Shown: positions 1 through 39,059, counted from the first letter of the stretch. The stretch: DNA of 64,000 nucleotides from an uncultured Planctomycetia bacterium (GCA_964437495.1 CAYTGV010000004.1:40413-104412), one strand, 5' to 3'. The notes: generated by a model not told the origin, from the sequence alone. A program made the numbers and translations.

Positions 1-408
1 TTAAATAAGTAATTTTGAGAGCTTAGTTCTTAATTTTTCCGCATTCTTAATTTCACATTCCCAAATAGTAATTGTTTTCCAGCCTAGTTTTCTTAAATCT
101 TTTTTGTGCATAACGTCCCTTTTTTTGTTGCGTTCAAGTTTGCGGCTCCAATATGATTGATTGCTTTTCGGGATATTTGCTCTTTTGCATCCTTTGTGCT
201 GATGCCAAAAACAGCCGTGAACAAAAACAACTGTTTTATATTTTTTTAAGACAATGTCTGGTTTGCCCGGCAAAGTTTTTTGATGTAGCCGGAAGCGGAA
301 GCCTAAAGAATGCAGAATTTGTCGAACTAATATTTCAGGCTTTGTATCGGATGAACGGATTAAGCTCATATTCCAGCTTCGTTTTTGAGGTGACAAATGA
401 TCAGCCAT
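1..408 (-). CDS. vsr: Very short patch repair endonuclease (Vsr, G/T mismatch endonuclease)
   Basis: 135-aa ORF with Vsr signature DTKPE...PGKPDIVL...VVFVHGCFWHQH; CAT start codon at 406-408 on the minus strand. No cognate C5-methyltransferase lies within the window on the upstream side. Confidence 0.8.
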   Translation of the reverse strand: MADHLSPQKRSWNMSLIRSSDTKPEILVRQILHSLGFRFRLHQKTLPGKPDIVLKKYKTVVFVHGCFWHQHKGCKRANIPKSNQSYWSRKLERNKKRDVMHKKDLRKLGWKTITIWECEIKNAEKLRTKLSKLLI

Positions 409-811
409 GAGTATATTATATAAAAAAAGAGAAGAATAAAAAGAATTTTATTATCAAATTGGGGAGTGGCGGTTAGCTTCTAGAAATACCAACTCTTTCA
501 ATAGTTAACTTATATATTGAAACAAAGAACAATGGGATTGAAGGTGCAATGAATTGCACTGGTGTCACGTTTGAGCCCAGATAATTAAGTATTGTGAATC
601 TCTCTCCATAAGATGGCTCTTCAGAAAAGGAATGCGAGCGTTGCTATTAGAGAACTAAAATTTAAGATGAAGGCTGCAACCTTAAAGCCTGCATCTACAA
701 ATCCTTCGCAAAATTCACATAACTCTATTGCGAAGAGGAATGGTCATTTAATGTTAAGCAGAAGGGATTAGTAAAAATATTGACTATAAACGAATAATAC
801 TACTATTATTC

Positions 812-839
812 TTGACAAAATTGCTTAATGTGATATAAT
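812..839 (+). promoter_or_regulatory. sigma70-type promoter (TTGACA-N16-TGaTATAAT) upstream of the RHH-gene operon
   Basis: TTGACA at 812-817 and extended -10 TGATATAAT ending at 839, about 50 nt upstream of the ATG at 890. Read directly from the sequence. Confidence 0.4.
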
Positions 840-889
840 ATATTATATAAGTGCAAAGATTAATACATTACAACTATGAGGAGAGAAAG

Positions 890-1936
890 ATGAGATACAT
901 TATTGATATTACACAAAATCAGTCTGATAACATTCAGAAACTTATTGCTGACGGCAGGTATAGAGATTTTAATCAATTTGTTTGCACTGCTATAGATAAT
1001 CAGCTGCACATTGAAACAGAAGAAATAGGCGGGCATAAGATAGAAAATTTAGGTAGCAAAATTAATGTTTACAAACCAGAAGAACTTTTTGAAATTGATA
1101 AAAGCATAAGCATAAAAACAATCAATATTGATGTGCAGGGGGTAGCGATGCCTGATTTTAAAAATTTATCAGGCTCAGCATATGAAATTGAGGAAAAAGA
1201 TTCTTGGTTGTGGGGCCAAGTTAATAAGATTTTCCCAGTGAAAATTGGTTTAAGGATTTTACTCGCTATGCAGGGAGCAGAAAAAAACATTACTTTGGAA
1301 GAATATAGTAAAAAAGCTACACATATTGCTGCATCTTATGGAACCGGGATTAGATTATATGAAGATAGAAAGAAAAGGCCTAGAGATTTAAGGATTTCAG
1401 CTGGATTACCTAGCGAAGATGCTTTTAAAAGCAAACTTAGATATAAAGGTCAATTTTTGGCATATGTGAGAAAAGACGGCTTAATGGAAGGGGCGATGTC
1501 TTTTTTGAAATTTATTAACTTGTATAAAGATGAAGAAAGCGGACAAATGTGTATTTACTTAACAGGCGCAGGAGTAAAGTTTGCACAAATCAGCAATCCC
1601 GTAATAGATAAGGGGGAGTTCGATAAAAGTTTAAGCAAAGAGGAAATAGCTTTTTATTTGGAGCATATTGCTGAGAATGTTATAGGTGAATATCAAGCAA
1701 TAAAATGGATGCTTGAAAAACTTGAAGAGGGGATATCAGATAGAACCTTGATAAATAGAGAAATGAAAAAAATCTTCAGCCAGCTATGGGGAGGCGCCTC
1801 AGATGCTGTTATTAATACACAGAGAGCAGGGCTGATGTCTAGAATGTATGAATTAAAATTGTATGACAAAGAAAAAGATGCGAATAAAGTTGCGTATTTA
1901 ATTAATGACGCTGGAAAAGAGCTTCTTCGGCAATAA
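890..1936 (+). CDS. Hypothetical protein with N-terminal ribbon-helix-helix (CopG/Arc-like) domain; first gene of a 3-gene operon
   Basis: Track ORF 851-1936 starts at GTG; the more likely start is ATG 890 with GAGGAGAG RBS 8 nt upstream. N-terminus MRYIIDITQNQSDNIQKLIADGRYRDFNQFVCTAIDNQL has an RHH beta-alpha-alpha pattern. The remaining ~300 aa have no family I recognise. Confidence 0.45.
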   Translation: MRYIIDITQNQSDNIQKLIADGRYRDFNQFVCTAIDNQLHIETEEIGGHKIENLGSKINVYKPEELFEIDKSISIKTINIDVQGVAMPDFKNLSGSAYEIEEKDSWLWGQVNKIFPVKIGLRILLAMQGAEKNITLEEYSKKATHIAASYGTGIRLYEDRKKRPRDLRISAGLPSEDAFKSKLRYKGQFLAYVRKDGLMEGAMSFLKFINLYKDEESGQMCIYLTGAGVKFAQISNPVIDKGEFDKSLSKEEIAFYLEHIAENVIGEYQAIKWMLEKLEEGISDRTLINREMKKIFSQLWGGASDAVINTQRAGLMSRMYELKLYDKEKDANKVAYLINDAGKELLRQ

Positions 1937-1953
1937 ATAAGAAGGGATGAAAC

Positions 1954-4347
1954 ATGAAATGTAAACATTGTGGGTATAATAACGCTGAAAGTAATTCTAT
2001 TTGTGATGAGTGTCGCCATTCATTGACTTCTTCAGGGACGCCACAAAACTGGAAAAGTGAAATAGAGCAAGTAGTGGCCACGTATGAGCAAGAACCAGCA
2101 AAAGGATTAGTCCACGGGTTACAAAAAGATGCTATTCAAAATGGTTGGGGGCATAGGGTTAACGATAAAGGTAGGGGGTGGAAATTTACTTTTACTCTGA
2201 AAAAATTCGAGGATGTTACATATTTGCTACTTACGGATGAAGGGACTACTGGATTAACAGGTCCAAATTTAACAACTGAAGAAATTCAACAGGCTGTGAC
2301 TCTCCCCGATGATCATAAGCTAGCTCGTTTTACAGGGATGAAGTGGTCTGGAGGTAGCCAGGGAGTGGGGTTGTATGGCAGAGGAAAGTTACTTTTTCCA
2401 GCTGTATCAAAAGATTGCAAGATATATTTTGATAGTCTTACGGAAAAGGATGGGTATAGATTGAATTACAAAATGCTCATAGGTTCAAGTTATGAAGGAT
2501 CTCCCAAAGCGCTGGAAGGAGAAGAAGCAAAAGATTTAATAAAAAAGCTCAAAATGGAACTACTTTCAAATATCGGCACACGAATAATCATAGTAAATCC
2601 AATACAAGAATTAGTTGAGGCAATAAAGAATGGAGAACTGATAAAAAACATCCAAGAAACATGGTGGCCTATAATAGCGCGGGGAGCAGAAATCTTTTTA
2701 GATATTAATGGGGTAAAACGGATTGTAGGCTTTCCTGAAGAATATTATGATTTACCCGAAAAGCCTGCAAATGGTTGGAAAGTGTGGTTTAGGAAGAATA
2801 TTAAGATTGGTGATGATTATACGATTAGACATATTCATTTGCTTATTGCTCCAAAAAAGATAGATGAAGATTTTAGAGGGATTCATTTGTATCGCCAGGG
2901 CATGAAAACGGGAGGTTTTAATTTTGAAATTCCTCCAAAAATTAAAGATCGGTATTTTGGATATATCGAGCTTGATAGGGGATCCGAACATATGGTAATC
3001 CCGCTTGAAGATATAACTCACTATGGATTCAAGAAGAAAAGAACTACGGAATTCCAGAAAATAAAGCGTTTTATCGAAAGTGACCATAAGGCTTTCATGG
3101 ATCGAGAAGGGCTATTAGTTAAAAAATATTCGAGCGAAGAAAAATTGAAAAAAACTTTTGAAAATAGTTCTAAAATTATCAATGAACTTATCTCTAGCTT
3201 TGGGATTGATAGCGTAGGTGAAGGAGGAATGACGGCTTCATTTATAGTAAGATGGATGGGGATTGATTTTCCAGACGAAGGGAATTCAAAAGTAGTAACA
3301 GGCGAGACTATAAGTAATATAAGATTTAAAATAATTAACAACCAGGGGAGCTGTGAGAGATTTAATTACCAGTTAAAAATTGTTCATAACGACAAAGATG
3401 TAGTTTTAATAGATGAACAATCGGTACCTGTAAATTCTTCTTCAGAAAAAATATTCGGGCCGTACAATGTTAATATTAATGAGCAAGCAATGCCTCGGTA
3501 TGAGAAGCTGTTCATACAGCTGGAGGTTAAAAAGGTAGGCCTTAAAAAACAAATCATAAAGAAAATACCTTTTTTCTATGATTGCGATCCTCAAGATAGG
3601 CCGGAGTTTGGATTCTCAGTCCAAATTGCGGAGGTAAAATTTCCAGGAGGGAATAGTCATAGAGTTAATACGGGCGAAAAAATTACAGGACTTAAATATT
3701 TGATAAAGAATAATACAGCACTGAGAGAAAAGATAGGGATATATATACGCACGCATAATATGACAGAAGGGGGAAACCCTGTAATAGAGGAGATACTACT
3801 CAATAGGGAGGGAATAACAATAGAGCCTTTTTCTGAAGAACTTGTTGAATGTAGGGATATTGATTTTTCAGAAGAGATTTATTTATCGCAAATTGCCAAA
3901 GGGTTGATAGAATTGCGGGCAAGTGTAAGTTCTATGGGTGAAGGAAAGTATGCGCATGCAGATTCAATTTGCAAGCCTTCTAAGATAAAAATATACTTTA
4001 ATGAAAATGAGCCGGGAGTAAGTGTTTTTAATGACTCAGAGTGGAAGAAAGATAAAGGTGGCCCTAGATCAGATTGCTCAGGACAAGGTAAAAACTGGAC
4101 ATTTATTATCAATATAGAACATTCTTGCTATATAAATGCTGAGGAAGAGGGCGAAGAAGCGCGGGACGAGTACTATGTTGACGAAATGCTGAAGCAGACA
4201 GTCAAGATATTATTATTGTCAAACAATTATAAGATTTTCACAAAGGATAAAAAATGGTTTGATAACGAAGAGGTGTCGCCGCCTGAAGTATTTGTAGTCA
4301 TGAATGAAGCATACGACAAATTGCTGGATAAAATACATAGGAGATAA
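1954..4347 (+). CDS. Zn-ribbon + GHKL (histidine-kinase/Hsp90/MORC-like) ATPase-fold protein, 797 aa
   Basis: N-terminal CxxC...CxxC ribbon (CKHCGYN...CDECRH). It is followed by GHKL-like boxes: N box LQKDAIQNGWGHR, G1 LTDEGTTGLTG, G2 SGGSQGVGLYGRGK. Only 18 nt separate it from the upstream gene, with an RBS. Confidence 0.45.
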   Translation: MKCKHCGYNNAESNSICDECRHSLTSSGTPQNWKSEIEQVVATYEQEPAKGLVHGLQKDAIQNGWGHRVNDKGRGWKFTFTLKKFEDVTYLLLTDEGTTGLTGPNLTTEEIQQAVTLPDDHKLARFTGMKWSGGSQGVGLYGRGKLLFPAVSKDCKIYFDSLTEKDGYRLNYKMLIGSSYEGSPKALEGEEAKDLIKKLKMELLSNIGTRIIIVNPIQELVEAIKNGELIKNIQETWWPIIARGAEIFLDINGVKRIVGFPEEYYDLPEKPANGWKVWFRKNIKIGDDYTIRHIHLLIAPKKIDEDFRGIHLYRQGMKTGGFNFEIPPKIKDRYFGYIELDRGSEHMVIPLEDITHYGFKKKRTTEFQKIKRFIESDHKAFMDREGLLVKKYSSEEKLKKTFENSSKIINELISSFGIDSVGEGGMTASFIVRWMGIDFPDEGNSKVVTGETISNIRFKIINNQGSCERFNYQLKIVHNDKDVVLIDEQSVPVNSSSEKIFGPYNVNINEQAMPRYEKLFIQLEVKKVGLKKQIIKKIPFFYDCDPQDRPEFGFSVQIAEVKFPGGNSHRVNTGEKITGLKYLIKNNTALREKIGIYIRTHNMTEGGNPVIEEILLNREGITIEPFSEELVECRDIDFSEEIYLSQIAKGLIELRASVSSMGEGKYAHADSICKPSKIKIYFNENEPGVSVFNDSEWKKDKGGPRSDCSGQGKNWTFIINIEHSCYINAEEEGEEARDEYYVDEMLKQTVKILLLSNNYKIFTKDKKWFDNEEVSPPEVFVVMNEAYDKLLDKIHRR

Positions 4348-5153
4348 TGATGGCAATATTATTCAAGAAAGAGAAAGGCAAGAATATATATAAAGGCATC
4401 GTCGGTAAAGAGCAGATACAGAAAGCCGATAAGCTGTATGAATATTTAGCTGCCAAAATCCCGAGACTAGAAACAGAGTTATCAGAGCAATATGAGAAAA
4501 TTAGCATACAATTTTGGTATTATTTTGGAAAAGGATTAAGAGAAATAGTAGAGAAATTTGATATAGATAACCAAGACAGACAATATCTTTGGGAGGCAAT
4601 TGCAAACTTAGCGGCGTCGGATGTAAGTGTGCGAAAAAATAGATCATCTAATAGAACAAATTATGAGTATTTTTATAGGCTTTCTGAAGTATCTTTAACG
4701 GATGTAGAAAAACTTAATTGGAGTGAGTGGTCTACATTTTTTGATTCGATTACTATAAGAAGAGAAGAAAGAAGTTTCGCATGGTTTATTACTAAGCTTT
4801 CGGATCGCAAGATGGATAGAAAGACAATGCGAACCTTAATGATTGCGATGAATAAAGCTCTAGAGGGTAAAGAAACGTGGATGTATTCCGATGAAGATCT
4901 ATGGAAGAGGTTTAATGCAGCGCTTATGGCGTCCTTGTTTTTAATCAGTAATGCACCCAAAGATAAGATGATACAAAAAAAAACAAATAAGCCCCTATCT
5001 GAGCGGCAGCAAATTGTAAATAAAAAAGCATTACAAAAAAAAACAAAGATCAGGCAAAAATTTTTCAAAGAATTTTTCATGCTAGTAGATTTAAAAGAGA
5101 AGTTAAGCATAGAAGCAATGTGCATAGAAGCTTTTAAAAAAGTTAAAGGATAG
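4347..5153 (+). CDS. Hypothetical protein (268 aa), translationally coupled to the GHKL-like gene
   Basis: The start ATG overlaps the upstream TAA (TAATG at 4345-4349). Lysine-rich C-terminus; no recognisable domain. Confidence 0.4.
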   Translation: MMAILFKKEKGKNIYKGIVGKEQIQKADKLYEYLAAKIPRLETELSEQYEKISIQFWYYFGKGLREIVEKFDIDNQDRQYLWEAIANLAASDVSVRKNRSSNRTNYEYFYRLSEVSLTDVEKLNWSEWSTFFDSITIRREERSFAWFITKLSDRKMDRKTMRTLMIAMNKALEGKETWMYSDEDLWKRFNAALMASLFLISNAPKDKMIQKKTNKPLSERQQIVNKKALQKKTKIRQKFFKEFFMLVDLKEKLSIEAMCIEAFKKVKG

Positions 5154-5299
5154 AGGAGTAGTGAAAATAAAAGAAGGGATATGTGAGGTATAAAGATTTT
5201 ATAGACAATTTGGAAATCCGCAGAACGTTAACGGATAAAGAAGAAACTAAAATGGGTAAAATTTGTTCTGTGACATCAAAAAACAGGAGGACATTAATT

Positions 5300-5500
5300 A
5301 TGAATAAGAATAAGTATTTCTCGGAAGGCACAATCGTTAAATTAAAAAATCCAGCTGACGATGTAGAGGGCAAGGCACTTTTCGAAGTAATTGAAAACAA
5401 AGGTGACAGAGTTGATATCAAGCTCTTAAACACAAAAATGTCTATTCCTCCTGTCGAGTGTGTAAGTATCAACGAAATCGTTATTGCAAATCCGAAATAA
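5300..5500 (+). CDS. Small hypothetical protein (~66 aa)
   Basis: The track ORF 5183-5500 contains an internal ATG at 5300 preceded by AGGAGG (5285-5290). The N-terminal part of the track ORF is therefore probably not translated. Confidence 0.3.
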   Translation: MNKNKYFSEGTIVKLKNPADDVEGKALFEVIENKGDRVDIKLLNTKMSIPPVECVSINEIVIANPK

Positions 5501-5765
5501 AAAAATTCTTTAAGCAAAATCTTCATTATTAACGAAGAGTGCTATTTTTCTTATGCGTTAAGTTTACAGCAAGCGGCTGAAATTAAAAGGCTAGCAAATA
5601 TAGAAAATATGGTGTTATCAGATGGTCGGATTTGCTGATATTATGGACTAAAGAAGACATATTTATAGATAAAAACATGCAAACAAGGGCCAACTTATAT
5701 ATAATTTAGTAAATTTACCGTAAAACAAGATGATCGTGTATTATATGTTAGTGAGAATAAATAAT

Positions 5766-6659
5766 ATGAAAAAAGATTTTGATTATGCTTATTATTTAGT
5801 TGCTTTCGTTGATGTCTTAGGACAAAAAGAAGCGTTTCAAGGCATTACTGATCTTCCTAAAAATGATGAGGCACAAAAAAAGCTAATAAAAGCGCATTCT
5901 AGCACTGTTTTATTTGTCGAAGAACTTAGAGAATGGTTTGACGACTTTTTTAGTAGTTATACTGAAATAAAAGACTCTGAGTTTAAAGTTCCGGAGGAAA
6001 AGAAAGAACAATTTGATGAAATGCGTAAAAGCATTTTAAACCATGCTCGTTTTTCAGATTGTCTCCAGTTTTCTGTTCCTTTAGTTAGCGATAAGAAATA
6101 TTATTCTCCTTGTGTGAATGGTATTTTTGGAATATTGGGTGCTTGTGGTGGAATGCTAATATTGTCTTTAGCCAAGAAAAAACCTTTCAGAGCTGGCATA
6201 GATGTGGGTATTGCCACAGAATTAAGTAGTGGTGAAGTGTATGGTCCAGGATTTTTTAATGCTTATACTTTGGAGAGTAAAATTGCTCAACATCCGAGAA
6301 TTGTAATCGGAGATACACTCATAAATTTTTTACTAAATTTGTCTCATAAAAATTCGCAGATACCAAATCAAACAAAAGAAGACGTAGAACTATGCAAAAT
6401 GTTAGCAGACAATTGCTTACAAATGATTATAAAAGATTTAGATGGACATTTCATTCTGGACTATCTTGGACAAAACTTTCGCGATAATTTCACTAAAAAT
6501 TTAGCTGCTGACGGACAAGAGGCAAATGAAAAAGCATTTAAGCTGGCTTTTGATTTTATTGAAAAAGAATACGAGAAGCTAAATAAAGATAGGAACGAGA
6601 AGCTTAGCTCAAGATATTTTATGTTATACAATTATTTTAAGTCTAGATTAAATCTCTAA
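5766..6659 (+). CDS. Nucleotidyl-cyclase-like protein (class III cyclase / GGDEF / mCpol-type palm domain) with unknown C-terminal domain
   Basis: Motifs YYLVAFVDVLGQKE (metal-binding FxDxxG) and RAGIDVGIATELSSGEVYGPGFFNAYTLESKIA resemble the RxGxhxG...G...VNxAxRxE palm-domain signature of adenylyl/guanylyl cyclases. Start chosen at ATG 5766; the track gives 5730. Confidence 0.4.
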   Translation: MKKDFDYAYYLVAFVDVLGQKEAFQGITDLPKNDEAQKKLIKAHSSTVLFVEELREWFDDFFSSYTEIKDSEFKVPEEKKEQFDEMRKSILNHARFSDCLQFSVPLVSDKKYYSPCVNGIFGILGACGGMLILSLAKKKPFRAGIDVGIATELSSGEVYGPGFFNAYTLESKIAQHPRIVIGDTLINFLLNLSHKNSQIPNQTKEDVELCKMLADNCLQMIIKDLDGHFILDYLGQNFRDNFTKNLAADGQEANEKAFKLAFDFIEKEYEKLNKDRNEKLSSRYFMLYNYFKSRLNL

Positions 6660-6750
6660 CAATTCGCTCCAGGGCAATCGGAACCTGCTCCGAAAAAGCA
6701 GGGTCGGCCTCCTCTGCCTGAGCTCAAATGTTTTATATGAGGAATAAAAA

Positions 6751-7800
6751 ATGAATGATGATAATATTATTACTACGAAAAGCATTGGTGCTGACATAGT
6801 TGATGTTAAAGAAGATTTTATCCTTGATCAAAAGCCAATGTCTCGTTTGGTTTTTCATGCCCAAATACATAGTGAGGGAATCAGAGGACGAATTATCAGA
6901 CAACGTAGAGAATCAACTGAGGATGTTTGGACTCCAGATAAAGTTATAAACATACGTGATTTAGGTAAAAACGAAGCAATAAATATTGAACTTAAAACAG
7001 TGGCAGTGAGAAAACTATATTCAGCGATATTAAAATTATTAAATATTTTGCAACAAAAAGGCATAGCATATGGAGAAAATAAATATGCAGTAGTGAATCC
7101 TGATTCTGTGGTCATTACAGATAAAAATAAGGCTGCTTACATTAAAAAGATTCTAGATGCTGGATATGATGAGGAAGTATGGAATACTCTTGTAGAATCA
7201 AACCCTTCTCTGGTTACGAAGTTATCCTACGCAAGAATACAAAGATCAAAACTAAAAGTAACCAAAGAATTAAAAAATAGATTACAAAAAGGCGGTTTCG
7301 ACGAAACGAAAGGTGATGATTGCTGGCAAAAATGGATATATAAAAACAATTGGTTGTTTGGGGTGAACTACAAAAAACCAATTGAGAAAACAAAAATTAA
7401 TATTGCAGGTGTAATGCCAGATTATCTCTTTCCAACTTTAGATGGATTTATTGACATCTTAGAGATTAAACTACCTGATAATGGAGTAATTGCTAAAGAT
7501 AGCAGTCATTGTGGTTCTTGGAAATTGACATCAGAAACAAATACTGCTATTGGGCAGGTTGTAAATTATTTAAATGAAATTGATAGACTGCGTCTTGAAA
7601 TTGAGAAAATTATAAGAACTCAATATGGTTGTGAAATTAGTTTATTAAAACCTCGTGCGTATATTTTGATTGGAAATAGTACTGGTTGGGATATTGAAAA
7701 AAGAGAAGGATTGCGAAAAATCAATAACGCTTTACATGGCATTGAAATATTAACATATGAAGATCTTCTAAGTAGAGGTTGCGAGGCAACAAAAGAATAG
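6751..7800 (+). CDS. Shedu-like (SduA / DUF4263) PD-(D/E)xK nuclease
   Basis: The C-terminal half has CWQKWIYKNNWLFGVNY ... PDYLFPTLDGFIDILEIKLP ... GQVVNYL, i.e. the D...(D/E)xK plus QxxxY restriction-endonuclease-like core, with the NPWLFG-type motif typical of DUF4263. Confidence 0.5.
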   Translation: MNDDNIITTKSIGADIVDVKEDFILDQKPMSRLVFHAQIHSEGIRGRIIRQRRESTEDVWTPDKVINIRDLGKNEAINIELKTVAVRKLYSAILKLLNILQQKGIAYGENKYAVVNPDSVVITDKNKAAYIKKILDAGYDEEVWNTLVESNPSLVTKLSYARIQRSKLKVTKELKNRLQKGGFDETKGDDCWQKWIYKNNWLFGVNYKKPIEKTKINIAGVMPDYLFPTLDGFIDILEIKLPDNGVIAKDSSHCGSWKLTSETNTAIGQVVNYLNEIDRLRLEIEKIIRTQYGCEISLLKPRAYILIGNSTGWDIEKREGLRKINNALHGIEILTYEDLLSRGCEATKE

Positions 7801-8001
7801 TTTTAGAGTATTGTTAAAAGTTAATAATGAATAATATAAACATATCAAATCTCTTCAGGCAGTCGCAACCCGCCGCCATGGAATTAAAGGGACACAATAC
7901 TTAATCATTGGGTGCGAGAAAAATGGTCAGGTCTTAAGACTTACAGAAGAGCAGGTTAAATTATTGACAAAACCCAATCTTTACACTAACCTATACTTAT
8001 C

Positions 8002-9033
8002 ATGGCAAATAAAAAATTAGCCTCTGAAAAAGTAACCTACGAAATAGATCCTTATAATAGACTTATCATTAACAAATCCGGCAAAAAAAGCCGACTCTCC
8101 AGATTTAGGCAGGTTCTTGACGGACGCTTCAAAATCGATAAAGACAATACAGTATCTTATTATATAAAAGCCCCGATGCCTAAAGGTGCGGAAATCCCGT
8201 ATCAGGTTAAACTCCAGGGGAAATGGTCTCTATCCGTTGATCATAACCTGTGCTTGACGCTTAATAAATGGGGCCGGGAAACTCTGGGAGATAAATTAAC
8301 TCTGCAGGCTGATGTAATAGATACATCTAAAAATTCTCTGGTTTTTGCCCTTACCACTACTACAAAAGAAAACACCCAATCAATTTATATCCTCAAACTC
8401 AAAGGAGCATGGCAGGCAGATAAGCACAACCGGCTTACGTTTAGGATTCAGAGAGAGCAGGGAAGCCACGATATCCTGACGTTTAGAGGCGCATGGGAGA
8501 TAAATAAACAGCATCAGATTATTTATCAGTATGAAAAAGCCCAGCTCATCCGCAAACGCAAAAAAATTCACACACTGATTTTTCAAGGCTATTGGGATAT
8601 AAAAGATAAAGGCCGAGTATCTTATATACTTGATCAGCAATCTAACTCTGTTTTTGCCTTCAAAACTAGCATAGGCATATTTAAAGACAAATATATAAAA
8701 TACGAAGTGGGTATAGGCGTTTCTCGTAAACCTAAACCAATAAAGCGTGTGCTTATTCTATTTGGTAAATGGAAAATTAAAAAAAGCGTAGGATTAATAT
8801 TTGAAGTGGAATACAAAAATAAAAAAATCCACGCCATGGTCTTTGGTGCAGAAGCGAAGCTGACTGCCAAAGATAGCATAAGTTTTAAGCTAAAGAATGA
8901 GAAAAATAAAGGCCTTAGCGCGCAGTTGAAACTTTCGCGCAAGATACTAAAAGGAGACGGCTTGTCATTCTTGCGATTTCTGAAATCAAAAGGGGAAAGT
9001 ACTGTTACTATAGGCGCGGGTTTTAGATGGTAG
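8002..9033 (+). CDS. Hypothetical beta-rich protein with internal sequence repeats
   Basis: 343 aa; recurring (F/L)xGxWxI(N/K)K...IxYxY segments. No signal peptide and no family I recognise. Confidence 0.4.
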   Translation: MANKKLASEKVTYEIDPYNRLIINKSGKKSRLSRFRQVLDGRFKIDKDNTVSYYIKAPMPKGAEIPYQVKLQGKWSLSVDHNLCLTLNKWGRETLGDKLTLQADVIDTSKNSLVFALTTTTKENTQSIYILKLKGAWQADKHNRLTFRIQREQGSHDILTFRGAWEINKQHQIIYQYEKAQLIRKRKKIHTLIFQGYWDIKDKGRVSYILDQQSNSVFAFKTSIGIFKDKYIKYEVGIGVSRKPKPIKRVLILFGKWKIKKSVGLIFEVEYKNKKIHAMVFGAEAKLTAKDSISFKLKNEKNKGLSAQLKLSRKILKGDGLSFLRFLKSKGESTVTIGAGFRW

Positions 9034-33182: not shown

Positions 33183-36100
33183 ATGAAAAGACAAAATAAA
33201 AAACCTCAAAAAATAATCGCGATTATACTAGTGCAATCATTCTTAATCAGTAATCTTGCCTGGGCCGGGACAAGTTCTGTTTTTTTAGCTAAAAATAAGA
33301 ATATAGCTACTCTTTCGCCGCAAACGATTATTAGCACAACTGCTTTTCAACAAGCTTGTGCCACTTATGCTTTTTGGAGTAAGCGTGTTCCAGGAATAGA
33401 TGCTTTGTCGCAAAAATACACAAATGCCAAAATGACTCAAGAGGCCTTAAATGCTATTCCTAAACAATACTGCACTGATTTTTATTTAAATCGAAGTTTT
33501 GTTAAAGGTGGTAATCCGATACTATATGAGGCGTGTAACCGTTTTAGCATAAAAGTTCCTAAATTAAAATATACTGATGTGCATGTAGTTTATACAAAAT
33601 TAAAAACCATACTAGAAAAAGATAGAACTGCTAAGGCCCTTAAAAGAAAAGTTAAAGATGGCGGGGATTCGAATTTATTAAAATATATTTATAAATACAA
33701 AAAAGAGTTAAAGGATATTTATGGGTTTGAATTACAAACTGATATTCAGCATGCAAAATATGATACGCCGAAAGCAGTATTTGATGCATTAATGGAAGTT
33801 CCAGAAAAAAAGCGTACTCGGAAACTGCTTGGTCGCAGCAAAGAAGATAAGGGTAATGTCACACTTTTAAGATGGTATGTAAAATTTGAAGCAGAAATTC
33901 TTAAAAAATATGATTATTATATACCCAAAGAACACACTAGCCGTCCGGCAGTAGAATATAATTCTGCTAAGGATGTTTATGATGCGTTAATGGCTTTAAA
34001 GCCAAAACAAAGAACTATGGATTATCTGGATCGCTCAGTGAAAGAAGGGGGTGACCGGAGATTATTAACGGCATATCGTAAATATAAAAAGGAAATTAAG
34101 CAAAAATATAAAATAGAAATAAAACGCCGGGAAATTGATAAGCTTTACGGAACATGGCAAGCAACATATCAAGCATTAATGCAGATCCCGGAACAACGGC
34201 GGACTACCTGGCATCTTAACCAGCCGAAATTGGAAAAGGGAAACAGGACCCTGTTAAAAGCAGCACGTGCTTTTAAAAAGCAATTAAAAGAGAAAAAAGG
34301 TTTTGAGCTGCCAGTACAGGAAAATCCGCTGCTTAATCAGTCCTTAAAATATCCTGATCCAAAATCTGTATATGAGGCTATAATTGCCCGAGATGAATCA
34401 GATCAAACTGTAAAAAGCTTAGATCGCATAATAGACGAGGATGGAGACAGAAAATTACTGGAACGTTATTATGTTTTTGAAGAGCAGATAAAAGAACTTT
34501 TTAATTATGAGCTAAAGCGGGATAAGGGTAAGTACGCAGAGACAAAAGATATTTATAATGCGATTATGGCGCGCCAACCAGAACAAAGGACTAGGCAGGC
34601 TTTAGATAAAGATAAAAAATACTTTGGAGACAGGTGTCTGCTTAAACGCATATTAGCTAAAGAAAAAGAATTACTTGAAGAATTTGGATTTGTCCTGGAA
34701 AAAGAAAAATATCAAAGGCCTTTAAAATATCCAACTCCTGAATCAGTTTATCAGGCGTTAATGGCGCGTGATTCGCAACTGCGTACAGTTGTGGCTTTAA
34801 AAACAAGCAAAGCGAATAAAGGCAATCGCGTGCTGCTTAAAGCCTATTATGAACATAAATTTGAAATCGCCAGAAAATTTCATTTTACTTTACCCAAAGC
34901 TAATGCGGCAAGTTATCCTGATTTTAAAATTACCTATAAAGCGCTGATGGAACTATCTCCGGAACTGCTTACCGCAAAAAGCCTGGATCGACCGGATCAG
35001 GAATACGGTAATAGAAGTTTGCTTAAAGCTTATCGTAAATTTAAAAAAGAATTACGTGAAACTTATGGATTTGTAATGCCCAAAGCGCAGCGTAAAAGAA
35101 TTGCAAAATATCAAACGCCGGAGGATGTCTATCAAGCAATAATGGCGCGGCCTGAAAATGAGCGGACCCAGACTAGCTTAAGGCGTAAAAAAGATGATGA
35201 TGGCGACCCGGCATTATTAAAAGAATATTATAGACATAAACAAGAGATATTTGAAAAATATGGTTTTAATTTAACGCAAGAAACAGAACCCATGTATCCG
35301 GATGGAAAAAGCACAAAAAAAGCATTAATGGAATTACCCGAAAAAGATCGCACTACCAAGCGCCTGGATGAATTAGGTTTATACTCATTACGCAAAGCTT
35401 GTAATAATTTTGAAATCCCTTTGCCAAAAGAAGAAAAGGCCTTAGATTATCCGGATCGGGAATCAGCGATTGCGGTTCTGAAAGAGATTCCCCTAAGAGA
35501 TCGTACTGCAGCGCGTTTACGCAGAAAAACAGAAGACGGGGGTAATCCTACATTATTGAATAACTGTTATAAATATGCGATTCGCTTACCTAAAGAAGAG
35601 GTAATGCAAGCCTATCCGAAAAAACAAAAAGTATTAGATGACTTAGCCAAATTATCAGAGCAAGATAAGTTGCCGAGCCGTCTTAGCCGTCAGCCATCAA
35701 AAGGAGGAAACCCTTTATTGTTTTTAGCCATCCTTGAGCATGAAATAGAGTTACCGAAAGATCAAAGAAAATATCCGAATAAGCGGCTGGCAGAAATGAT
35801 GTTAAGCCGGCTGCCGAAAAGAATGCGTACTGCTAGAATGCTCCACCCAACAAGAAATCCCTACGGAGAAGGTGATTATACGCTGTATATGCGGTGTTTA
35901 GAATTTAAAATACCTTTGGAAAGAGAACCGTCTGAATTTATTTATCCTACAGTTGAAGCAACATACAAAGCTTTAAAAGCAATACCTAAAGAAAAACGAA
36001 CCCGTACGCATTTGATGCTGCCTAAAGATACAGGAGGAGATCCAACGCTTTATAATGCATTTAAAAGATTTAGAAAAGAATTAAAACAAAAATATAATTT

Positions 36101-39059
36101 TAAGATTGAACGGGAACATGCGTGGAAATATAAAACTAAAGAACAAGCTTTAGCCGCCTTTAATGCTTTGGCGTCTGAGGATAGAACGGCGGGTAAATTA
36201 TTACGTACTAAAAAAAATAAAGGTAATTTTGCACTCTATTATGCTTGTATCAGGTTTGAAATATCCTTTGCAGAACCGGTTTCAGTAAAAAAGTATCCGG
36301 ATACTGAATCGGCCAGAGAAGGATTAATGGCACGGCCTTTGGAAAAACGTTATGCTTCGGAGCTGACAAAATTAAAAGGAGAAGGCGGTGACCCTTCTTT
36401 GTATGATGCTTGTTTAGAATTTAAGATCCCTTTACCGATAAAAGAAAAACAGGAACTAATATACAGTGATGAAAAGATTACTTTTGTGGCATTGATGGAA
36501 ATTCCGGAAGAAGAAAGATTTGTTTCTAAATTAAGCCGGCCTAAACCGAAAGGTAATCCGACTTTATTAGCAGCTTATTATAAATTCAGATCAATACTAA
36601 AAGCAGTTTACGGATTTGCAATGAAGGCGATAATTAGATCTCCGTATCCGACGCTAGAAGCAGCGCAGGCAGCTTTAGAAAAACGTCCGGAATCTGAACG
36701 TACAGTAACAGCATTGGATCAAGCTTATCCTAAAGGTAACAGAGCATTGCTCAGAGCCGCAAGAAAATTTAAAATTGAATTACCTAAAGGAAATGCTAAA
36801 CAATATCCAGATGCAGAATCGGTATATACAGCTTTAAAAAATAGAAAAGAAAAGCTTAATACATCAAAAATGCTTAACCGCCCTAGAGGTCAGGGAGGCA
36901 ATCGCACATTATTATTGGATTATTATGAACATCGCGATCAAATAAAAGAAGAGTTTAATTATGTTCTGCCGCAGGAAGAAAGAAAAGGTATGAATGCAAA
37001 ATACAAGACTCCGGAAGAGGCTCAAGCAGTATTGAATGAACGTTCTGAAGGGGAGCGTACTGCGAAAAGTTTAAGACAAAAGAAAGATGAAGGCGGAGAT
37101 TGGGCATTGTATGCTGCGTGTAAACGCTTTGGTATTAAATTAGATGATCCAAAGCCCATGCAGGCAGGTTACGATCGCTACAAAGAAGAAGTCCTTAAAT
37201 CCATGGACAGTGTGAATATAGATGTTTTTGATTATTGGCAGAGAATGCAGGAAGTAAACGCTAAAGAAAGAGATTCAAGGCGTAGCGTATTAATAGAATA
37301 TTTTATGCCGATGATTTTTAATAAAGCAGAAAACGGAAAAAAAGCAAAAGAGATTAATTTTTATAGAAATATATCTTATAACCAAGCCTATCATTATGAT
37401 GATCTGATCAATAGCGCAGTGATTGCGGTAATGGAAGCCATAGAATTTTGGCATCCGGATTTAAGTTTAGAAGAAGATAATACTGTTGAAGCGCAAGCCA
37501 GAGCGGATATTAATGAATATATAGAGGCTAAGATAAATCAAGCCATGGGCCTTGAGAAAAAAGTAATCTATCAGAATAAATGGACACATAGCTCAATTGA
37601 GACACCTTCTGGGAATAAAGGGGGGAATAATGTAAATAGTAAACCGGGTAAATTTGGCGGAAGTAATCATAAGACTTTGGGTGATACCCTCAAGAGTGAA
37701 GCGGAGTCTGTTGATAATACTATATCGCGTTTTGAGAAAATGCAGGAAGTTTTAGAGAATTTCAAAAAAGCAGATTACAGTTTTATTCAGAGTGCGATTA
37801 ATACACTTGATTCTGAGACAGCAGCAAATTTTGATTTAGATGAAAGTCTGCTTTTAAGTAAAGCAGAAAAGCTTAATTTTCAAAAAGATTTATTAGCATA
37901 TTGTAATAAAAAAGATATTTTAAAACATATCCCTGGAAAGTTTTCGATTTGGCTGATGGGCAGCTTGGGGAATATTGGCCTTGCGCGAAAGGGATTAAGT
38001 GATGTGAATATATTGATTGTAACTGATGCTCCAGAAAATAGTTTAAGGCAAACGATCGTGGATATCAGAACCGCAATTGGTAGCGGGTTAATAAAAGTCG
38101 GTAAAGATGGTAATGTTACTTTAGAAATAGGCAGAGATGATGATTATCGGGATATGGTGTTTAATGCGCAGGATTTCTTAACGCTTACGGAAAGATATGA
38201 TCTGGGAAATCAAGAAAAAGGGATTGCTTCGATTGAGATTGTATCTGTAAACACAGCTGATGCGGGTAGTAACCGTGCAATCCATAGAGCGCAGTTTCAT
38301 TTAACTGAAGATTTATATCAAATGGGTGAAAACGCGGCGTTGATCGCAGAATCACAACCCGGCGTTGCCCAGCAGACAAAAGATGAATTTAAACAAAACA
38401 TTGCTATGGGCAATCATGATTATTTATTCTTTATGAATGATTATTTAATGGGCTTTTTTATGAAACAAGTACGTAAAGTAATTGCCGCGCATAAATTTGC
38501 GCACCCGGGAAAAGGGAAAACAAAAACAGTTAAGCCTGAAGCAGTAATTAAAATTGAACCCGGTTCAATAATTAAATTTCCTAAACCTAAAATATCCTGG
38601 ATATCTCCCAATCAAGTTAAATTGGGAGAAACAATTGTTAATGTGATCAGAAACAATGGTTCGCTGTCCATTCAATTAACTGGAGTTTTAACTGAAGGGG
38701 TTGATTCTTACCAGGAATTTTGGCAGCAGGTCGCAAAAGATTTTGATGGTAAAGAAATTTTTGTTGATGATCCGGAAGTTGACACAAATAATATTAACCC
38801 GGCAATGCTTGTGGCTATAGAAGAGCAGACTGATCAGATCTGTGATATTTTAGCGAATCAGGCAGAGGCTTTATATGCAGGAGAAGCTGTCTTGCGGCGT
38901 ATTGATCATGATCCTGATTTCTCGGATATTAAAGTGTTAGAATTTCAGGAAAATGATAAAATGATGGCAATGTTAGCTTCGACTCTAAAAGATAAATCCT
39001 TAAAGAAAAATAATTTTAATTTGCAGGCAGAACCAAAATTAATCGAGCAGGCCATTTAA
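33183..39059 (+). CDS. Giant (1958 aa) signal-peptide protein: ~19 tandem ~65-aa repeats, sigma70-region-2-like segment and C-terminal nucleotidyltransferase-like domain
   Basis: Signal peptide IIAIILVQSFLISNLAWAG. Repeat unit YP(D/T)xESVYxALMxxPExxRTxxxLxRxxxxGGNxxLLxAYxKFKxELxxKYGFxLP. The segment RNISYNQAYHYDDLINSAVIAVMEAIEFWHPD resembles sigma70 region 2 (DLIQEGNIGLMKAVEKFDP). GSLGNIGLARKGLSDVNILIVTD fits the minimal nucleotidyltransferase motif hG[GS]x9-13Dh[DE]h. Confidence 0.6.
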   Translation: MKRQNKKPQKIIAIILVQSFLISNLAWAGTSSVFLAKNKNIATLSPQTIISTTAFQQACATYAFWSKRVPGIDALSQKYTNAKMTQEALNAIPKQYCTDFYLNRSFVKGGNPILYEACNRFSIKVPKLKYTDVHVVYTKLKTILEKDRTAKALKRKVKDGGDSNLLKYIYKYKKELKDIYGFELQTDIQHAKYDTPKAVFDALMEVPEKKRTRKLLGRSKEDKGNVTLLRWYVKFEAEILKKYDYYIPKEHTSRPAVEYNSAKDVYDALMALKPKQRTMDYLDRSVKEGGDRRLLTAYRKYKKEIKQKYKIEIKRREIDKLYGTWQATYQALMQIPEQRRTTWHLNQPKLEKGNRTLLKAARAFKKQLKEKKGFELPVQENPLLNQSLKYPDPKSVYEAIIARDESDQTVKSLDRIIDEDGDRKLLERYYVFEEQIKELFNYELKRDKGKYAETKDIYNAIMARQPEQRTRQALDKDKKYFGDRCLLKRILAKEKELLEEFGFVLEKEKYQRPLKYPTPESVYQALMARDSQLRTVVALKTSKANKGNRVLLKAYYEHKFEIARKFHFTLPKANAASYPDFKITYKALMELSPELLTAKSLDRPDQEYGNRSLLKAYRKFKKELRETYGFVMPKAQRKRIAKYQTPEDVYQAIMARPENERTQTSLRRKKDDDGDPALLKEYYRHKQEIFEKYGFNLTQETEPMYPDGKSTKKALMELPEKDRTTKRLDELGLYSLRKACNNFEIPLPKEEKALDYPDRESAIAVLKEIPLRDRTAARLRRKTEDGGNPTLLNNCYKYAIRLPKEEVMQAYPKKQKVLDDLAKLSEQDKLPSRLSRQPSKGGNPLLFLAILEHEIELPKDQRKYPNKRLAEMMLSRLPKRMRTARMLHPTRNPYGEGDYTLYMRCLEFKIPLEREPSEFIYPTVEATYKALKAIPKEKRTRTHLMLPKDTGGDPTLYNAFKRFRKELKQKYNFKIEREHAWKYKTKEQALAAFNALASEDRTAGKLLRTKKNKGNFALYYACIRFEISFAEPVSVKKYPDTESAREGLMARPLEKRYASELTKLKGEGGDPSLYDACLEFKIPLPIKEKQELIYSDEKITFVALMEIPEEERFVSKLSRPKPKGNPTLLAAYYKFRSILKAVYGFAMKAIIRSPYPTLEAAQAALEKRPESERTVTALDQAYPKGNRALLRAARKFKIELPKGNAKQYPDAESVYTALKNRKEKLNTSKMLNRPRGQGGNRTLLLDYYEHRDQIKEEFNYVLPQEERKGMNAKYKTPEEAQAVLNERSEGERTAKSLRQKKDEGGDWALYAACKRFGIKLDDPKPMQAGYDRYKEEVLKSMDSVNIDVFDYWQRMQEVNAKERDSRRSVLIEYFMPMIFNKAENGKKAKEINFYRNISYNQAYHYDDLINSAVIAVMEAIEFWHPDLSLEEDNTVEAQARADINEYIEAKINQAMGLEKKVIYQNKWTHSSIETPSGNKGGNNVNSKPGKFGGSNHKTLGDTLKSEAESVDNTISRFEKMQEVLENFKKADYSFIQSAINTLDSETAANFDLDESLLLSKAEKLNFQKDLLAYCNKKDILKHIPGKFSIWLMGSLGNIGLARKGLSDVNILIVTDAPENSLRQTIVDIRTAIGSGLIKVGKDGNVTLEIGRDDDYRDMVFNAQDFLTLTERYDLGNQEKGIASIEIVSVNTADAGSNRAIHRAQFHLTEDLYQMGENAALIAESQPGVAQQTKDEFKQNIAMGNHDYLFFMNDYLMGFFMKQVRKVIAAHKFAHPGKGKTKTVKPEAVIKIEPGSIIKFPKPKISWISPNQVKLGETIVNVIRNNGSLSIQLTGVLTEGVDSYQEFWQQVAKDFDGKEIFVDDPEVDTNNINPAMLVAIEEQTDQICDILANQAEALYAGEAVLRRIDHDPDFSDIKVLEFQENDKMMAMLASTLKDKSLKKNNFNLQAEPKLIEQAI

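Follow-up and report, generated by a model that had tools for sequence, protein, structure and literature searches.

The conserved unit at this locus is protein B together with its partner protein C and a C5 DNA methylase, and not the trio A-B-C. The original prediction had treated the trio as the unit. As a trio it does recur, in 12 of 80 GTDB loci and in about 17 metagenome loci, but its first member can be swapped for others. The methylase was missed in that prediction because it is encoded 1.1–2.2 kb to the left of the window, that is, of the 64,000 nucleotides of an uncultured Planctomycetia bacterium that were analysed. We read A-B-C as a methylation-linked, MORC-like ATPase defence module of the restriction-modification type. 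We hold this reading with about even confidence, and its defence role is taken from context.

All three genes are found on the plus strand. Gene A spans 890–1936 and encodes 348 aa from its ATG, with an alternative GTG at 851 that would give 361 aa. It is followed by gene B (1954–4347, 797 aa) and by gene C, which has two alternative ATGs and spans 4350–5153 (267 aa, the form P0216) or 4347–5153 (268 aa). The tight linkage described earlier holds for the packing of the genes. The gap between A and B is 17 nt and not 18, and the TAATG overlap of B and C is real, but the ATG at 4350 is the better fit to the GGAG at 4340–4343. The start of C is therefore either 1 nt inside or 2 nt past the B stop, with the latter favoured. 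The single strong promoter that had been proposed is borne out by a promoter-like site, TTGACA-16-TATAAT with an extended -10 TG upstream (812–839, plus strand), the sole 12/12 match to the sigma-70 consensus within 300–6800. Promoter-like sites overall show no excess, with 25 observed and 25.1 expected from shuffled sequence. No terminator-like site was found between A, B and C, and the sequence indicates that all three are transcribed together, as a compact unit, from a consensus promoter.

Directly upstream, a perfect inverted repeat GAATAATA-4-TATTATTC (792–811, plus strand) abuts the -35 hexamer and is, from its pattern and position, a candidate operator for A. The leader contains the motif GATTAATACATT (858–869, plus strand), one copy, with two mismatches, of a repeat (G/A)ATGAAAACATT that recurs around -47 and -27 ahead of A genes in other loci. 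Among 78 distinct upstream regions of A genes, about 19 carry this repeat with up to two mismatches between -50 and -25, irrespective of the ATPase encoded downstream. CTTGACA(TTTT)-type -35 boxes likewise recur upstream of A genes at many other loci. That promoter and leader repeat are kept whichever ATPase comes next counts for A as a regulator.

Protein A is a predicted DNA-binding regulator or adaptor. Its RHH-like N-terminus (aa 1–46, nt 890–1027, plus strand), predicted to bind DNA, is connected by a disordered linker (aa 46–61) to an array of winged helices (aa ~90–348, nt 1157–1933). In the AlphaFold (AF2) model, an extended N-terminus is followed by helices 9–20 and 27–46 at pLDDT 89–96. 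Pfam RHH_8 matches 7 of 50 relatives weakly (best E 0.008, under the curated cut-off), and several homologues are named Arc/MetJ-type RHH regulators by JGI. These observations lend support to an RHH-like N-terminus, as in the original prediction. The leader position can be taken by any of three interchangeable modules. A fills it in 12 of the 80 loci, and the other fillers are a 78-aa protein or a gene pair resembling AbrB and PIN. Homologues of A also precede at least four other families of GHKL-type ATPases.

Protein B is, judged from its structure model, a predicted GHKL+S5 ATPase that belongs structurally with MORC, SMCHD1 and MutL and continues into Ig-like domains. The GHKL ATP-binding domain (aa ~33–245) and the S5-fold transducer (aa ~246–360) occupy nt 2050–3033 on the plus strand. 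The model has a pLDDT of 90.1 and places the expected Bergerat fold in three dimensions, and 289–318 residues align onto the GHKL+S5 modules of MORC3, MORC2 and SMCHD1. The N, G1 and G2 boxes named earlier are all in place. Thirteen residues are invariant in the 56 family members: K58, D59, Q62, N63, D95, G100, G103, G139, G142, G144, K145, G208 and R210. Motif I reads D59-A-I-Q-N63, with D59-x3-N63 in 56/56 members. Its trailing Asp (position 66) is kept by 18 of 56 members, and 37 have Gly there. Motif II (D95-x-G97-x2-G100) has D95 and G100 in all 56 and G97 in 51. In motif III (G139-x2-G142-x-G144-K145) the three glycines are each kept in 56/56, and in motif IV G208 is found in 56/56 and T209 in 49/56. 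The S5 domain carries R314 and E352-x3-H356, with E352 in 55 and H356 in 56 members. Against our reading counts that the acid of motif I, the presumed catalytic base, is Asp and not the usual Glu. ATPase activity is an assumption. HATPase_c, HATPase_c_3 or any other GHKL Pfam model matches none of the 56 members even at E 10, and a search of the PDB with the B family profile gave no GHKL chain.

The remaining parts of B are more particular. The N-terminal CxxC...CxxC zinc ribbon (aa 1–25, nt 1954–2028, plus strand; Pfam DZR E 0.052) is present as originally described. It is found in just 7–10 of 56 members and is lineage-specific, so it is not a feature of the family. The C-terminal half (nt 3046–4341, plus strand) is composed of long helices (aa 365–415), beta domains and a helical tail (aa 724–796). 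Two of the beta domains are repeated Ig-like beta-sandwiches (aa ~430–545 and ~554–632), each beginning with FP-x5-6-(R/K)V-x2-G(E)-x-I, and a third beta domain covers aa ~650–720.

Protein C is a near-universal partner of B. In 76 of 80 loci the two are neighbours in the same orientation, with C starting within about 13 nt of the end of B or overlapping it. G61 and W128 are invariant (alignment A2), and W82, W125, D133, R142, W146 and R162 are conserved at 90% or more. C belongs to no recognisable family, with no matches in Pfam, PADLOC, NCBIfam, PHROG or the PDB. Trp, Arg and Asp are prominent among the conserved residues, and no nuclease motif was found in C.

A C5 methylase cluster is present at 68 of the 80 loci. 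In the well-flanked set (loci dereplicated at 80% identity with at least 4 kb on both sides, n=29), it lies within 1.5 kb in 24 loci, within 4 kb in four and is absent from one. Gene orders and orientations vary, and the methylase frequently shares an operon with B-C or converges on the C stop. B-C therefore has the linked DNA methyltransferase expected of a restriction-modification system. The module was found in 118 of 185,579 GTDB species, with hosts among Bacillota, Chloroflexota, Bacteroidota, Omnitrophota, CPR-type candidate phyla (Shapirobacteria, WWE3) and Asgard and DPANN archaea. Neighbours across these loci include Shedu, TIR, Fic, a ThsA macro domain, GmrSD, AIPR and integrases. 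The plasmid and phage records searched gave no match to the module, and 2.9 million viral contigs gave one. We infer that it spreads horizontally in chromosomal islands of bacteria and archaea.

In this contig the defence-island setting is supported by the neighbouring genes. The flanks named before are both real: vsr, a T/G mismatch endonuclease gene, at 1–408 on the minus strand (Pfam Vsr E 4e-33; PADLOC Vsr E 1.3e-28), and Shedu SduA at 6751–7800 (PADLOC E 1.6e-89), with two further ORFs between C and Shedu (5183–5500 and 5730–6659). Shedu is not co-conserved with B-C, as SduA is absent from the other 80 B-C loci. On the longer contig (L082), a DNA_methylase gene (E 1.6e-80) and a restriction-enzyme-like gene with a B3-type DNA-binding domain precede Vsr and A-B-C. 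The last 12 nt of the restriction-enzyme-like gene are positions 1–12 of the window. Since these two genes lie just left of the window, vsr belongs to this methylase and restriction-enzyme-like unit.

Searches of A, the 78-aa leader, B and C for families and motifs revealed no nuclease or other effector. Pfam-recognisable restriction nucleases are nearby, as separate genes, in about 13–15 of 57 dereplicated loci, which leaves the damaging step at most loci without an account. B-C might instead lack independent activity and serve such neighbours (B3-domain, PLD, FokI-type, AlwI and EcoRII enzymes) as a partner that uses ATP to loop or clamp DNA. These enzymes would need two sites or a partner ATPase. 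Where none is recognisable, the nuclease would be an unrecognised one or encoded elsewhere. The same looping role was proposed for paraMORCs by Iyer et al. (PMC2292703). It would fit the restriction-enzyme-like gene of this contig, which is 40% identical to one beside B-C in two other loci (L021/L052) and has relatives with the same B3-like domain in L009 and L024. We nevertheless consider this unlikely. The majority of B-C loci are compact operons of HTH_17, methylase, 78-aa leader, B and C with no space for a nuclease, and the accompanying nuclease families are mutually unrelated, which argues against a specific protein–protein partnership.

Vsr is encoded in 20 loci and a Mig-type T/G glycosylase (PDB 1kea, E 6e-48) in 15, beside B-C or beside the methylase, so that 35 of 80 have either. 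Together with the nuclease-free core and the functional interaction of E. coli MutL with Vsr, as cited in PMC2292703, this could suggest a role for B-C in very-short-patch repair, as a MutL-like helper acting with A or the 78-aa leader. Where 5-methylcytosines made by the linked methylase have deaminated to T:G mismatches, the ATPase would load Vsr or Mig or stimulate their action, and the cassette would be a methylase with its own repair kit and not an immune effector. We regard this as quite improbable. Neither Vsr nor Mig is encoded within about 7 kb in 45 of 80 loci, among them most operons of the compact type (methylase, 78-aa leader, B and C), and the structure of B is nearer to MORC and SMCHD1 than to MutL. 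A three-protein machine of about 1,400 aa with a strongly regulated promoter and a place in defence islands is costly for patch repair. In addition, homologues of A head cassettes beside N4/N6 methylases, where T:G repair is irrelevant.

A-B-C could also be a self-contained abortive-infection or toxin-antitoxin-like module travelling with restriction-modification genes, with A or an RHH/AbrB-type leader as antitoxin and repressor, B-C as toxic ATPase and methylase proximity due to shared integration hotspots. This would suit the leader fillers typical of toxin-antitoxin systems (an RHH protein, or the AbrB and PIN-like pair), the strong promoter and the location in a defence island. We find it very doubtful. 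The linkage is much closer than residence in a common island would give, with a C5 methylase no more than 4 kb away in 28 of the 29 well-flanked loci, which come from very different phyla. No other defence gene recurs beside B-C, Shedu occurring in this contig only.

Several known systems resemble the module in part. VcSduA, the type I-D Shedu (paraMORC3), is a GHKL-DUF4263 fusion whose ATPase is needed for phage defence, as the E27A mutation abolishes defence (PMC12137116). It shares with B an island-borne GHKL ATPase, but it unites ATPase and PD-(D/E)xK nuclease in one polypeptide and involves no methylase, whereas B has no DUF4263 (SduA_C) match and the SduA of this contig is a separate gene. 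BREX is similar in methylation-based discrimination of self and foreign DNA without an obvious nuclease. It differs in that homologues of PglZ, BrxC, BrxL and PglX are missing here and the methylase is C5, not N6. The likeness to BrxA is at the generic winged-helix level, and Foldseek gave nothing significant. A sister cassette (L086) contains an A homologue, a 649-aa GHKL protein and two more genes, followed by a C5 methylase and Vsr. Its ATPase matches PDC-M33A of the PADLOC candidate PDC-M33 (E 1e-23), so among the systems that an A homologue leads, at least one is already flagged as a defence candidate, PDC entries being candidates and not validated systems. The B and C profiles gave no matches in the three sister loci L085–L087. 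A, B and C themselves match no PADLOC model (0 families at E ≤ 0.1). This agrees with the earlier statement that no named system applies, and it counts against our reading.

Eukaryotic MORC2, MORC3 and SMCHD1 are ATP-driven dimerising DNA clamps or compactors with a role in methylation-linked silencing, and their clamp action suggests a mode of action that requires no nuclease. In contrast to them, B has Asp for Glu in motif I, lacks their CW, coiled-coil or hinge domains and carries Ig-like beta-sandwiches and a separate partner protein instead, and sequence identity is only 11–15%. Following the methylation-linked, MORC-like defence reading, the methylase would mark host DNA as self, and Vsr or Mig would repair the T:G mismatches from 5-methylcytosine deamination. 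A would dimerise via its RHH and repress its own promoter by binding either the leader repeat or the inverted repeat next to the -35 box, similar to C-proteins and antitoxin-type regulators, and may also tether the ATPase to DNA. B, with C bound, would dimerise upon ATP binding and close as a clamp around DNA.

The module had been called uncharacterised. This holds in that no named system matches, but its kind was predicted before. In Iyer et al. 2008 (PMC2292703), MORC/paraMORC GHKL ATPases were predicted in restriction-modification operons with Dcm and Vsr. Like B, these have their GHKL domain in the N-terminal part, ahead of an S5-fold domain, the arrangement by which MORCs are defined there, and a sporadic horizontal spread in bacteria and archaea. 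Like B-C, they are found in operons with cytosine methylases and Vsr. E352-x3-H356 at the end of the S5 region of B matches a feature described for paraMORC2, the closest of these to B, and many B hosts are Bacillota, a further likeness to paraMORC2. The differences are that the MORC S5 motif GhXhhpXXRhl is not kept in B, where the strand reads R-G-I-H-L-Y-R314-Q-G-M317-K (alignment A1), with the invariant Arg shifted by three positions and Met at the Arg position of the motif. The 2008 operons centre on SFII helicases and nucleases, both absent from the B-C core, and the passages of that paper considered here do not contain the partners C, the 78-aa protein or A. On our best reading the kind of module is thus not unknown, since GHKL ATPases in methylase- and Vsr-linked operons were predicted in 2008, and A-B-C would fit among these restriction-modification-linked MORC/paraMORC ATPases.

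The three genes lie on the forward strand, A at 890–1936 (348 aa from ATG, or 361 aa if the GTG at 851 is used), B at 1954–4347 (797 aa) and C at 4347–5153 (268 aa). The tight linkage of three ORFs described in the original prediction holds, with its spacing amended. The gap between A and B is 17 nt rather than 18. The TAATG overlap is present, with the TAA of B overlapping ATG 4347, and C possibly starts at ATG 4350, for which GGAG at 4340–4343 is better spaced and which yields the 267-aa form recorded in the protein database. No terminator-like site was found between A, B and C. A promoter-like site at 812–839, TTGACA-16-TATAAT with the TG of an extended −10, is the sole 12/12 match within 300–6800.

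B adopts the fold of a MORC-like GHKL ATPase. Its single sequence gives a weak zinc-ribbon match in Pfam and nothing in NCBIfam, PHROGs or PADLOC. PDB sequences were matched neither by the single protein nor by a 56-member profile, and none of the 56 family members matches the HATPase models, even at E 10. We base the GHKL assignment on structure and motifs. In structural comparison B scores 23.6 against the SMCHD1 ATPase module (318 residues aligned), 22.8 against MORC3, 21.5 against MORC2, 18.9 against TRAP1, 17.7 against MutL and about 15–16 against the topoisomerase II/VI ATPases. The residues first read as ATPase boxes are indeed the GHKL motifs and are invariant: D59-x3-N63, D95-x-G97-x2-G100, G139-x2-G142-x-G144-K145 and G208-T209. 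The catalytic acid of motif I is Asp, where Glu is usual. The S5 transducer spans approximately residues 246–360 and carries an invariant R314 and E352-x3-H356. Beyond it come long helices, a pair of Ig-like sandwich repeats, a further (third) beta domain and a helical tail. The N-terminal CxxC...CxxC ribbon is present in only 7–10 of the 56 members. B is predicted to be an active ATPase and to form a complex with C.

A word-indexed search with B returned 76 clusters, which carry no Pfam domain and no informative name, being called hypothetical or uncharacterized at best. An exhaustive profile search found 336 representatives at E ≤1e-30 among 1.84 billion. B is encoded in 118 of 185,579 GTDB species representatives, and its hosts include gut Bacillota, Chloroflexota, Bacteroidota, Omnitrophota and candidate phyla as well as Asgard, Bathyarchaeia and DPANN archaea. 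Carriage on plasmids or phages was rejected, since tblastn found nothing among 72,556 plasmids and 50,697 phage records, and a single one of 2.9 million viral contigs gave a match.

For the neighbourhood survey, ORFs were called in 80 loci with B homologues and then clustered. In 76 of these loci C comes directly after B in the same orientation, overlapping it or separated by at most about 13 nt. Among the neighbouring genes the strongest signal comes from a C5 cytosine methyltransferase (PF00145), which 68 of the 80 loci encode. Once the loci were dereplicated at 80% identity, 29 had 4 kb or more of sequence on either side; the methylase lies within 1.5 kb in 24 of them, within 4 kb in a further 4, and is absent in 1. 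It is found upstream or downstream of B-C and on either strand, and all four combinations occur. In gut Bacillota the commonest gene string comprises five genes, in which a small excisionase-like HTH_17 gene, a C5 methylase of about 530 aa containing a long insertion and a conserved helical protein of 78 aa precede B and C. Genes for phage-type integrases lie close to a few loci of this type, and there are hints that the gut Bacillota loci are carried on integrative elements.

Vsr is found with the B-C module in 20 of the 80 loci and an HhH glycosylase in 15. Among PDB entries the glycosylase is closest to 1kea, a Mig-type enzyme that repairs G-T mismatches (E 6e-48). In a rival reading, B-C is a MutL-like helper for Vsr or Mig repair. 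This would explain part of the data, and we rate it below a module of restriction-modification type.

A longer version of its contig (L082, positions 1–8059 reaching leftward, with 8048 corresponding to window base 1) encodes, in order, a large serine recombinase, an HTH protein, a TIR_2 protein (338 aa) and its partner of 811 aa, then a C5 methylase (E 1.6e-80) and the product of a restriction-enzyme-like gene of 381 aa, whose last 12 nt are window positions 1–12. The product of this last gene has an NgoFVII-type B3-like DNA-binding domain (E 3.4e-10) and is 40% identical to its counterpart beside B-C in two other loci (L021/L052). Convergent on this gene is vsr (1–408, reverse strand, Pfam E 4e-33), after which A-B-C begins. 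The original prediction listed vsr as a neighbour of the trio. It is present, and from its place to the right of the methylase and the restriction-enzyme-like gene, as seen in the leftward contig sequence, we conclude that it belongs to the methylase unit by which B-C is accompanied elsewhere and is not a mere neighbour.

The trio sits in a defence island. On its other side lies a full-length Shedu SduA gene at 6751–7800 (PADLOC PDLC00390, E 1.6e-89; Pfam SduA_C, E 1.8e-21). It was rejected as a part of the module, as the other 80 loci all lack SduA, and is an independent defence gene. Two ORFs separate C from SduA. An ORF at 5183–5500 (105 aa, or 66 aa from ATG 5301 with a good GGAGG) starts 30 nt past C with no terminator between; a second at 5730–6659 (309 aa) has phrog_23933 as its sole match (E 2e-7, unknown function). 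Neither ORF is conserved outside the near-identical contigs L082–L084. Downstream of Shedu, an ORF of 343 aa at 8002–9033 has no family match, and two very large ORFs of 1958 and 1674 aa occupy 33183–39059 and 42098–47122. No tRNA gene or Rfam family was found in the whole 64-kb window.

Nuclease content was assessed across 57 dereplicated loci by scanning 106 genes that flank the methylase/B-C blocks or lie inside them. Recognisable restriction nucleases are encoded in only a minority of them: NgoFVII-type and FokI cleavage domain proteins by 4 genes each, HNH and AlwI by 2 each and EcoRII-C by 1. Most loci leave no space for a nuclease, as in the frequently seen Firmicute operon of HTH_17, methylase (about 536 aa), 78-aa leader, B and C. 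C is the orphan partner of B, with four homologues in a protein database search. Its conserved residues are G61, W82, W125, W128, D133, R142, W146 and R162, and no known nuclease motif was recognised among them. Neither A nor C could be assigned to a family in Pfam, NCBIfam, PHROGs, PADLOC or PDB with single sequences and profiles. Kinship of C with A or with the small second genes of other A-led cassettes (c1/c66) was rejected at probabilities of 0.5–0.8%.

ATPases of this kind are already known. Iyer, Abhiman and Aravind (2008, PMC2292703) described prokaryotic MORC and paraMORC1–5 GHKL+S5 ATPases in restriction-modification operons with cytosine methylases and Vsr, and proposed a DNA-looping role for them. 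B-C as a looping motor for two-site nucleases explains part of the data and is likewise rated lower than the module proposed here. In their description the S5 domain of paraMORC2 ends with an ExxxH motif, and this class is frequent in Gram-positive bacteria. B resembles the description of paraMORC2 in both traits and may belong to it. The MORC-specific S5 motif is not kept in B. Among the GHKL/MORC-like ATPases for which a part in restriction-modification systems was predicted in 2008, the sole experimentally supported case in the literature searched is the nuclease-fused Shedu form VcSduA, also named paraMORC3 (PMC12137116). In contrast to VcSduA, B has no nuclease domain. That literature held no account of the B-C family, of the absence of helicase and nuclease from it, or of an A leader common to several ATPase families.

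The gene in front of B is variable. It is an A homologue in 12 of the 80 loci, the 78-aa helical protein in 43 and, judged by eye only, an AbrB-like and PIN-like pair in 6. Homology of the 78-aa leader to A, or its origin as a fragment of A, was rejected (hhalign probability 0.3%). The pair consists of a 76-aa AbrB/SpoVT-like and a 132-aa PIN-like protein of VapBC type, again by eye, and occurs in differing phyla (L010, L049, L070, L074, L075 and L078); no PDB sequence match was found for it, and in L010 the PIN-like gene overlaps the start of B. An independent Abi or toxin-antitoxin-like module hitch-hiking with restriction-modification genes would explain part of the data, and this too is rated lower.

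A forms a larger family than B, with 159 clusters. Its model (pLDDT 91, pTM 0.80) has an N-terminal strand-helix-helix (helices 9–20 and 27–46), a disordered linker and a body of several winged helices. In a set of 80 metagenome loci, at least five different cassettes begin with A. It precedes B-C in 17 loci (GHKL by structure and motifs; C5 methylase with Vsr or Mig), a 209-aa protein and an ATPase of about 735 aa (c2) in 24 (HATPase_c_3 at E 3e-5 and GHKL motifs; N4/N6-type methylase in some loci), an ATPase of about 796 aa with clear GHKL motifs (c5) in 14 (N4/N6 type), an ATPase of 649–673 aa (c17) matching the PADLOC candidate PDC-M33A at E 1e-23 in 3 (C5 and Vsr), and a Big_2 Ig-domain protein of about 745 aa (c20), GHKL-like by eye only and with no HATPase match, in 3 (N4/N6 type). 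Four of the five large proteins, all except c20, thus show GHKL motifs or profile matches, and the cassettes mostly adjoin C5 or N4/N6 DNA methylases. Kinship of B with the sister ATPases was set aside as well: B aligns colinearly but only weakly with the c2 family (E 0.0017, probability 15%) and does not match c5. A against c1 gave a probability of 2.5%.

Within 130 nt upstream of the A genes of these metagenome loci (L085–L167), a CTTGACATTTT-type −35 box is followed by a −10 box, and a leader repeat (G/A)ATGAAAACATT stands at about −47 and −27 from the A start codon, regardless of the ATPase downstream. This noncoding architecture is conserved in about 19 of 78 distinct upstream regions. 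The window has a single diverged copy of the repeat at 858–869 and an 8-bp perfect inverted repeat at 792–811 adjoining the −35 hexamer, and these elements within 780–889 are a possible operator for A. The conserved promoter and leader repeat, together with the toxin-antitoxin-like alternatives in the leader position, favour A as a putative autoregulator. It may in addition link the ATPase to DNA as an adaptor.

A methylation-keyed, MORC-like ATPase module of restriction-modification type is the best-supported reading of A-B-C. The C5 methylase would mark self DNA, Vsr or Mig would curb the mutagenic cost of this mark, and A or the alternative leaders would govern expression. The B-C clamp would act on unmethylated DNA, either with co-encoded nucleases or by nuclease-free blocking. 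Sensitivity to methylation and a defence phenotype are expected of such a module. A more far-reaching proposal, which we consider improbable as a whole, is that the minimal set of C5 methylase, small leader, B and C forms a nuclease-free immune or silencing system, in which an ATP-driven, MORC/SMCHD1-like clamp loads on unmethylated DNA and blocks replication or expression. Such a system would correspond in prokaryotes to the methylation-linked MORC silencing of eukaryotes and might be related to its ancestor, with A-type RHH/winged-helix proteins as the common control module of at least five GHKL-type ATPase families.

A could serve as a practical marker that helps to find further GHKL-type cassettes. 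The B family is invisible to profile annotation, having no Pfam, NCBIfam or PADLOC model. It spans bacteria and archaea, is nearly always tied to a cytosine methylase and itself has no recognisable nuclease. These traits make it a clean test case for the action of a MORC-type clamp on an epigenetic mark, a question that bears on the origin of eukaryotic MORC and SMCHD1 silencing.
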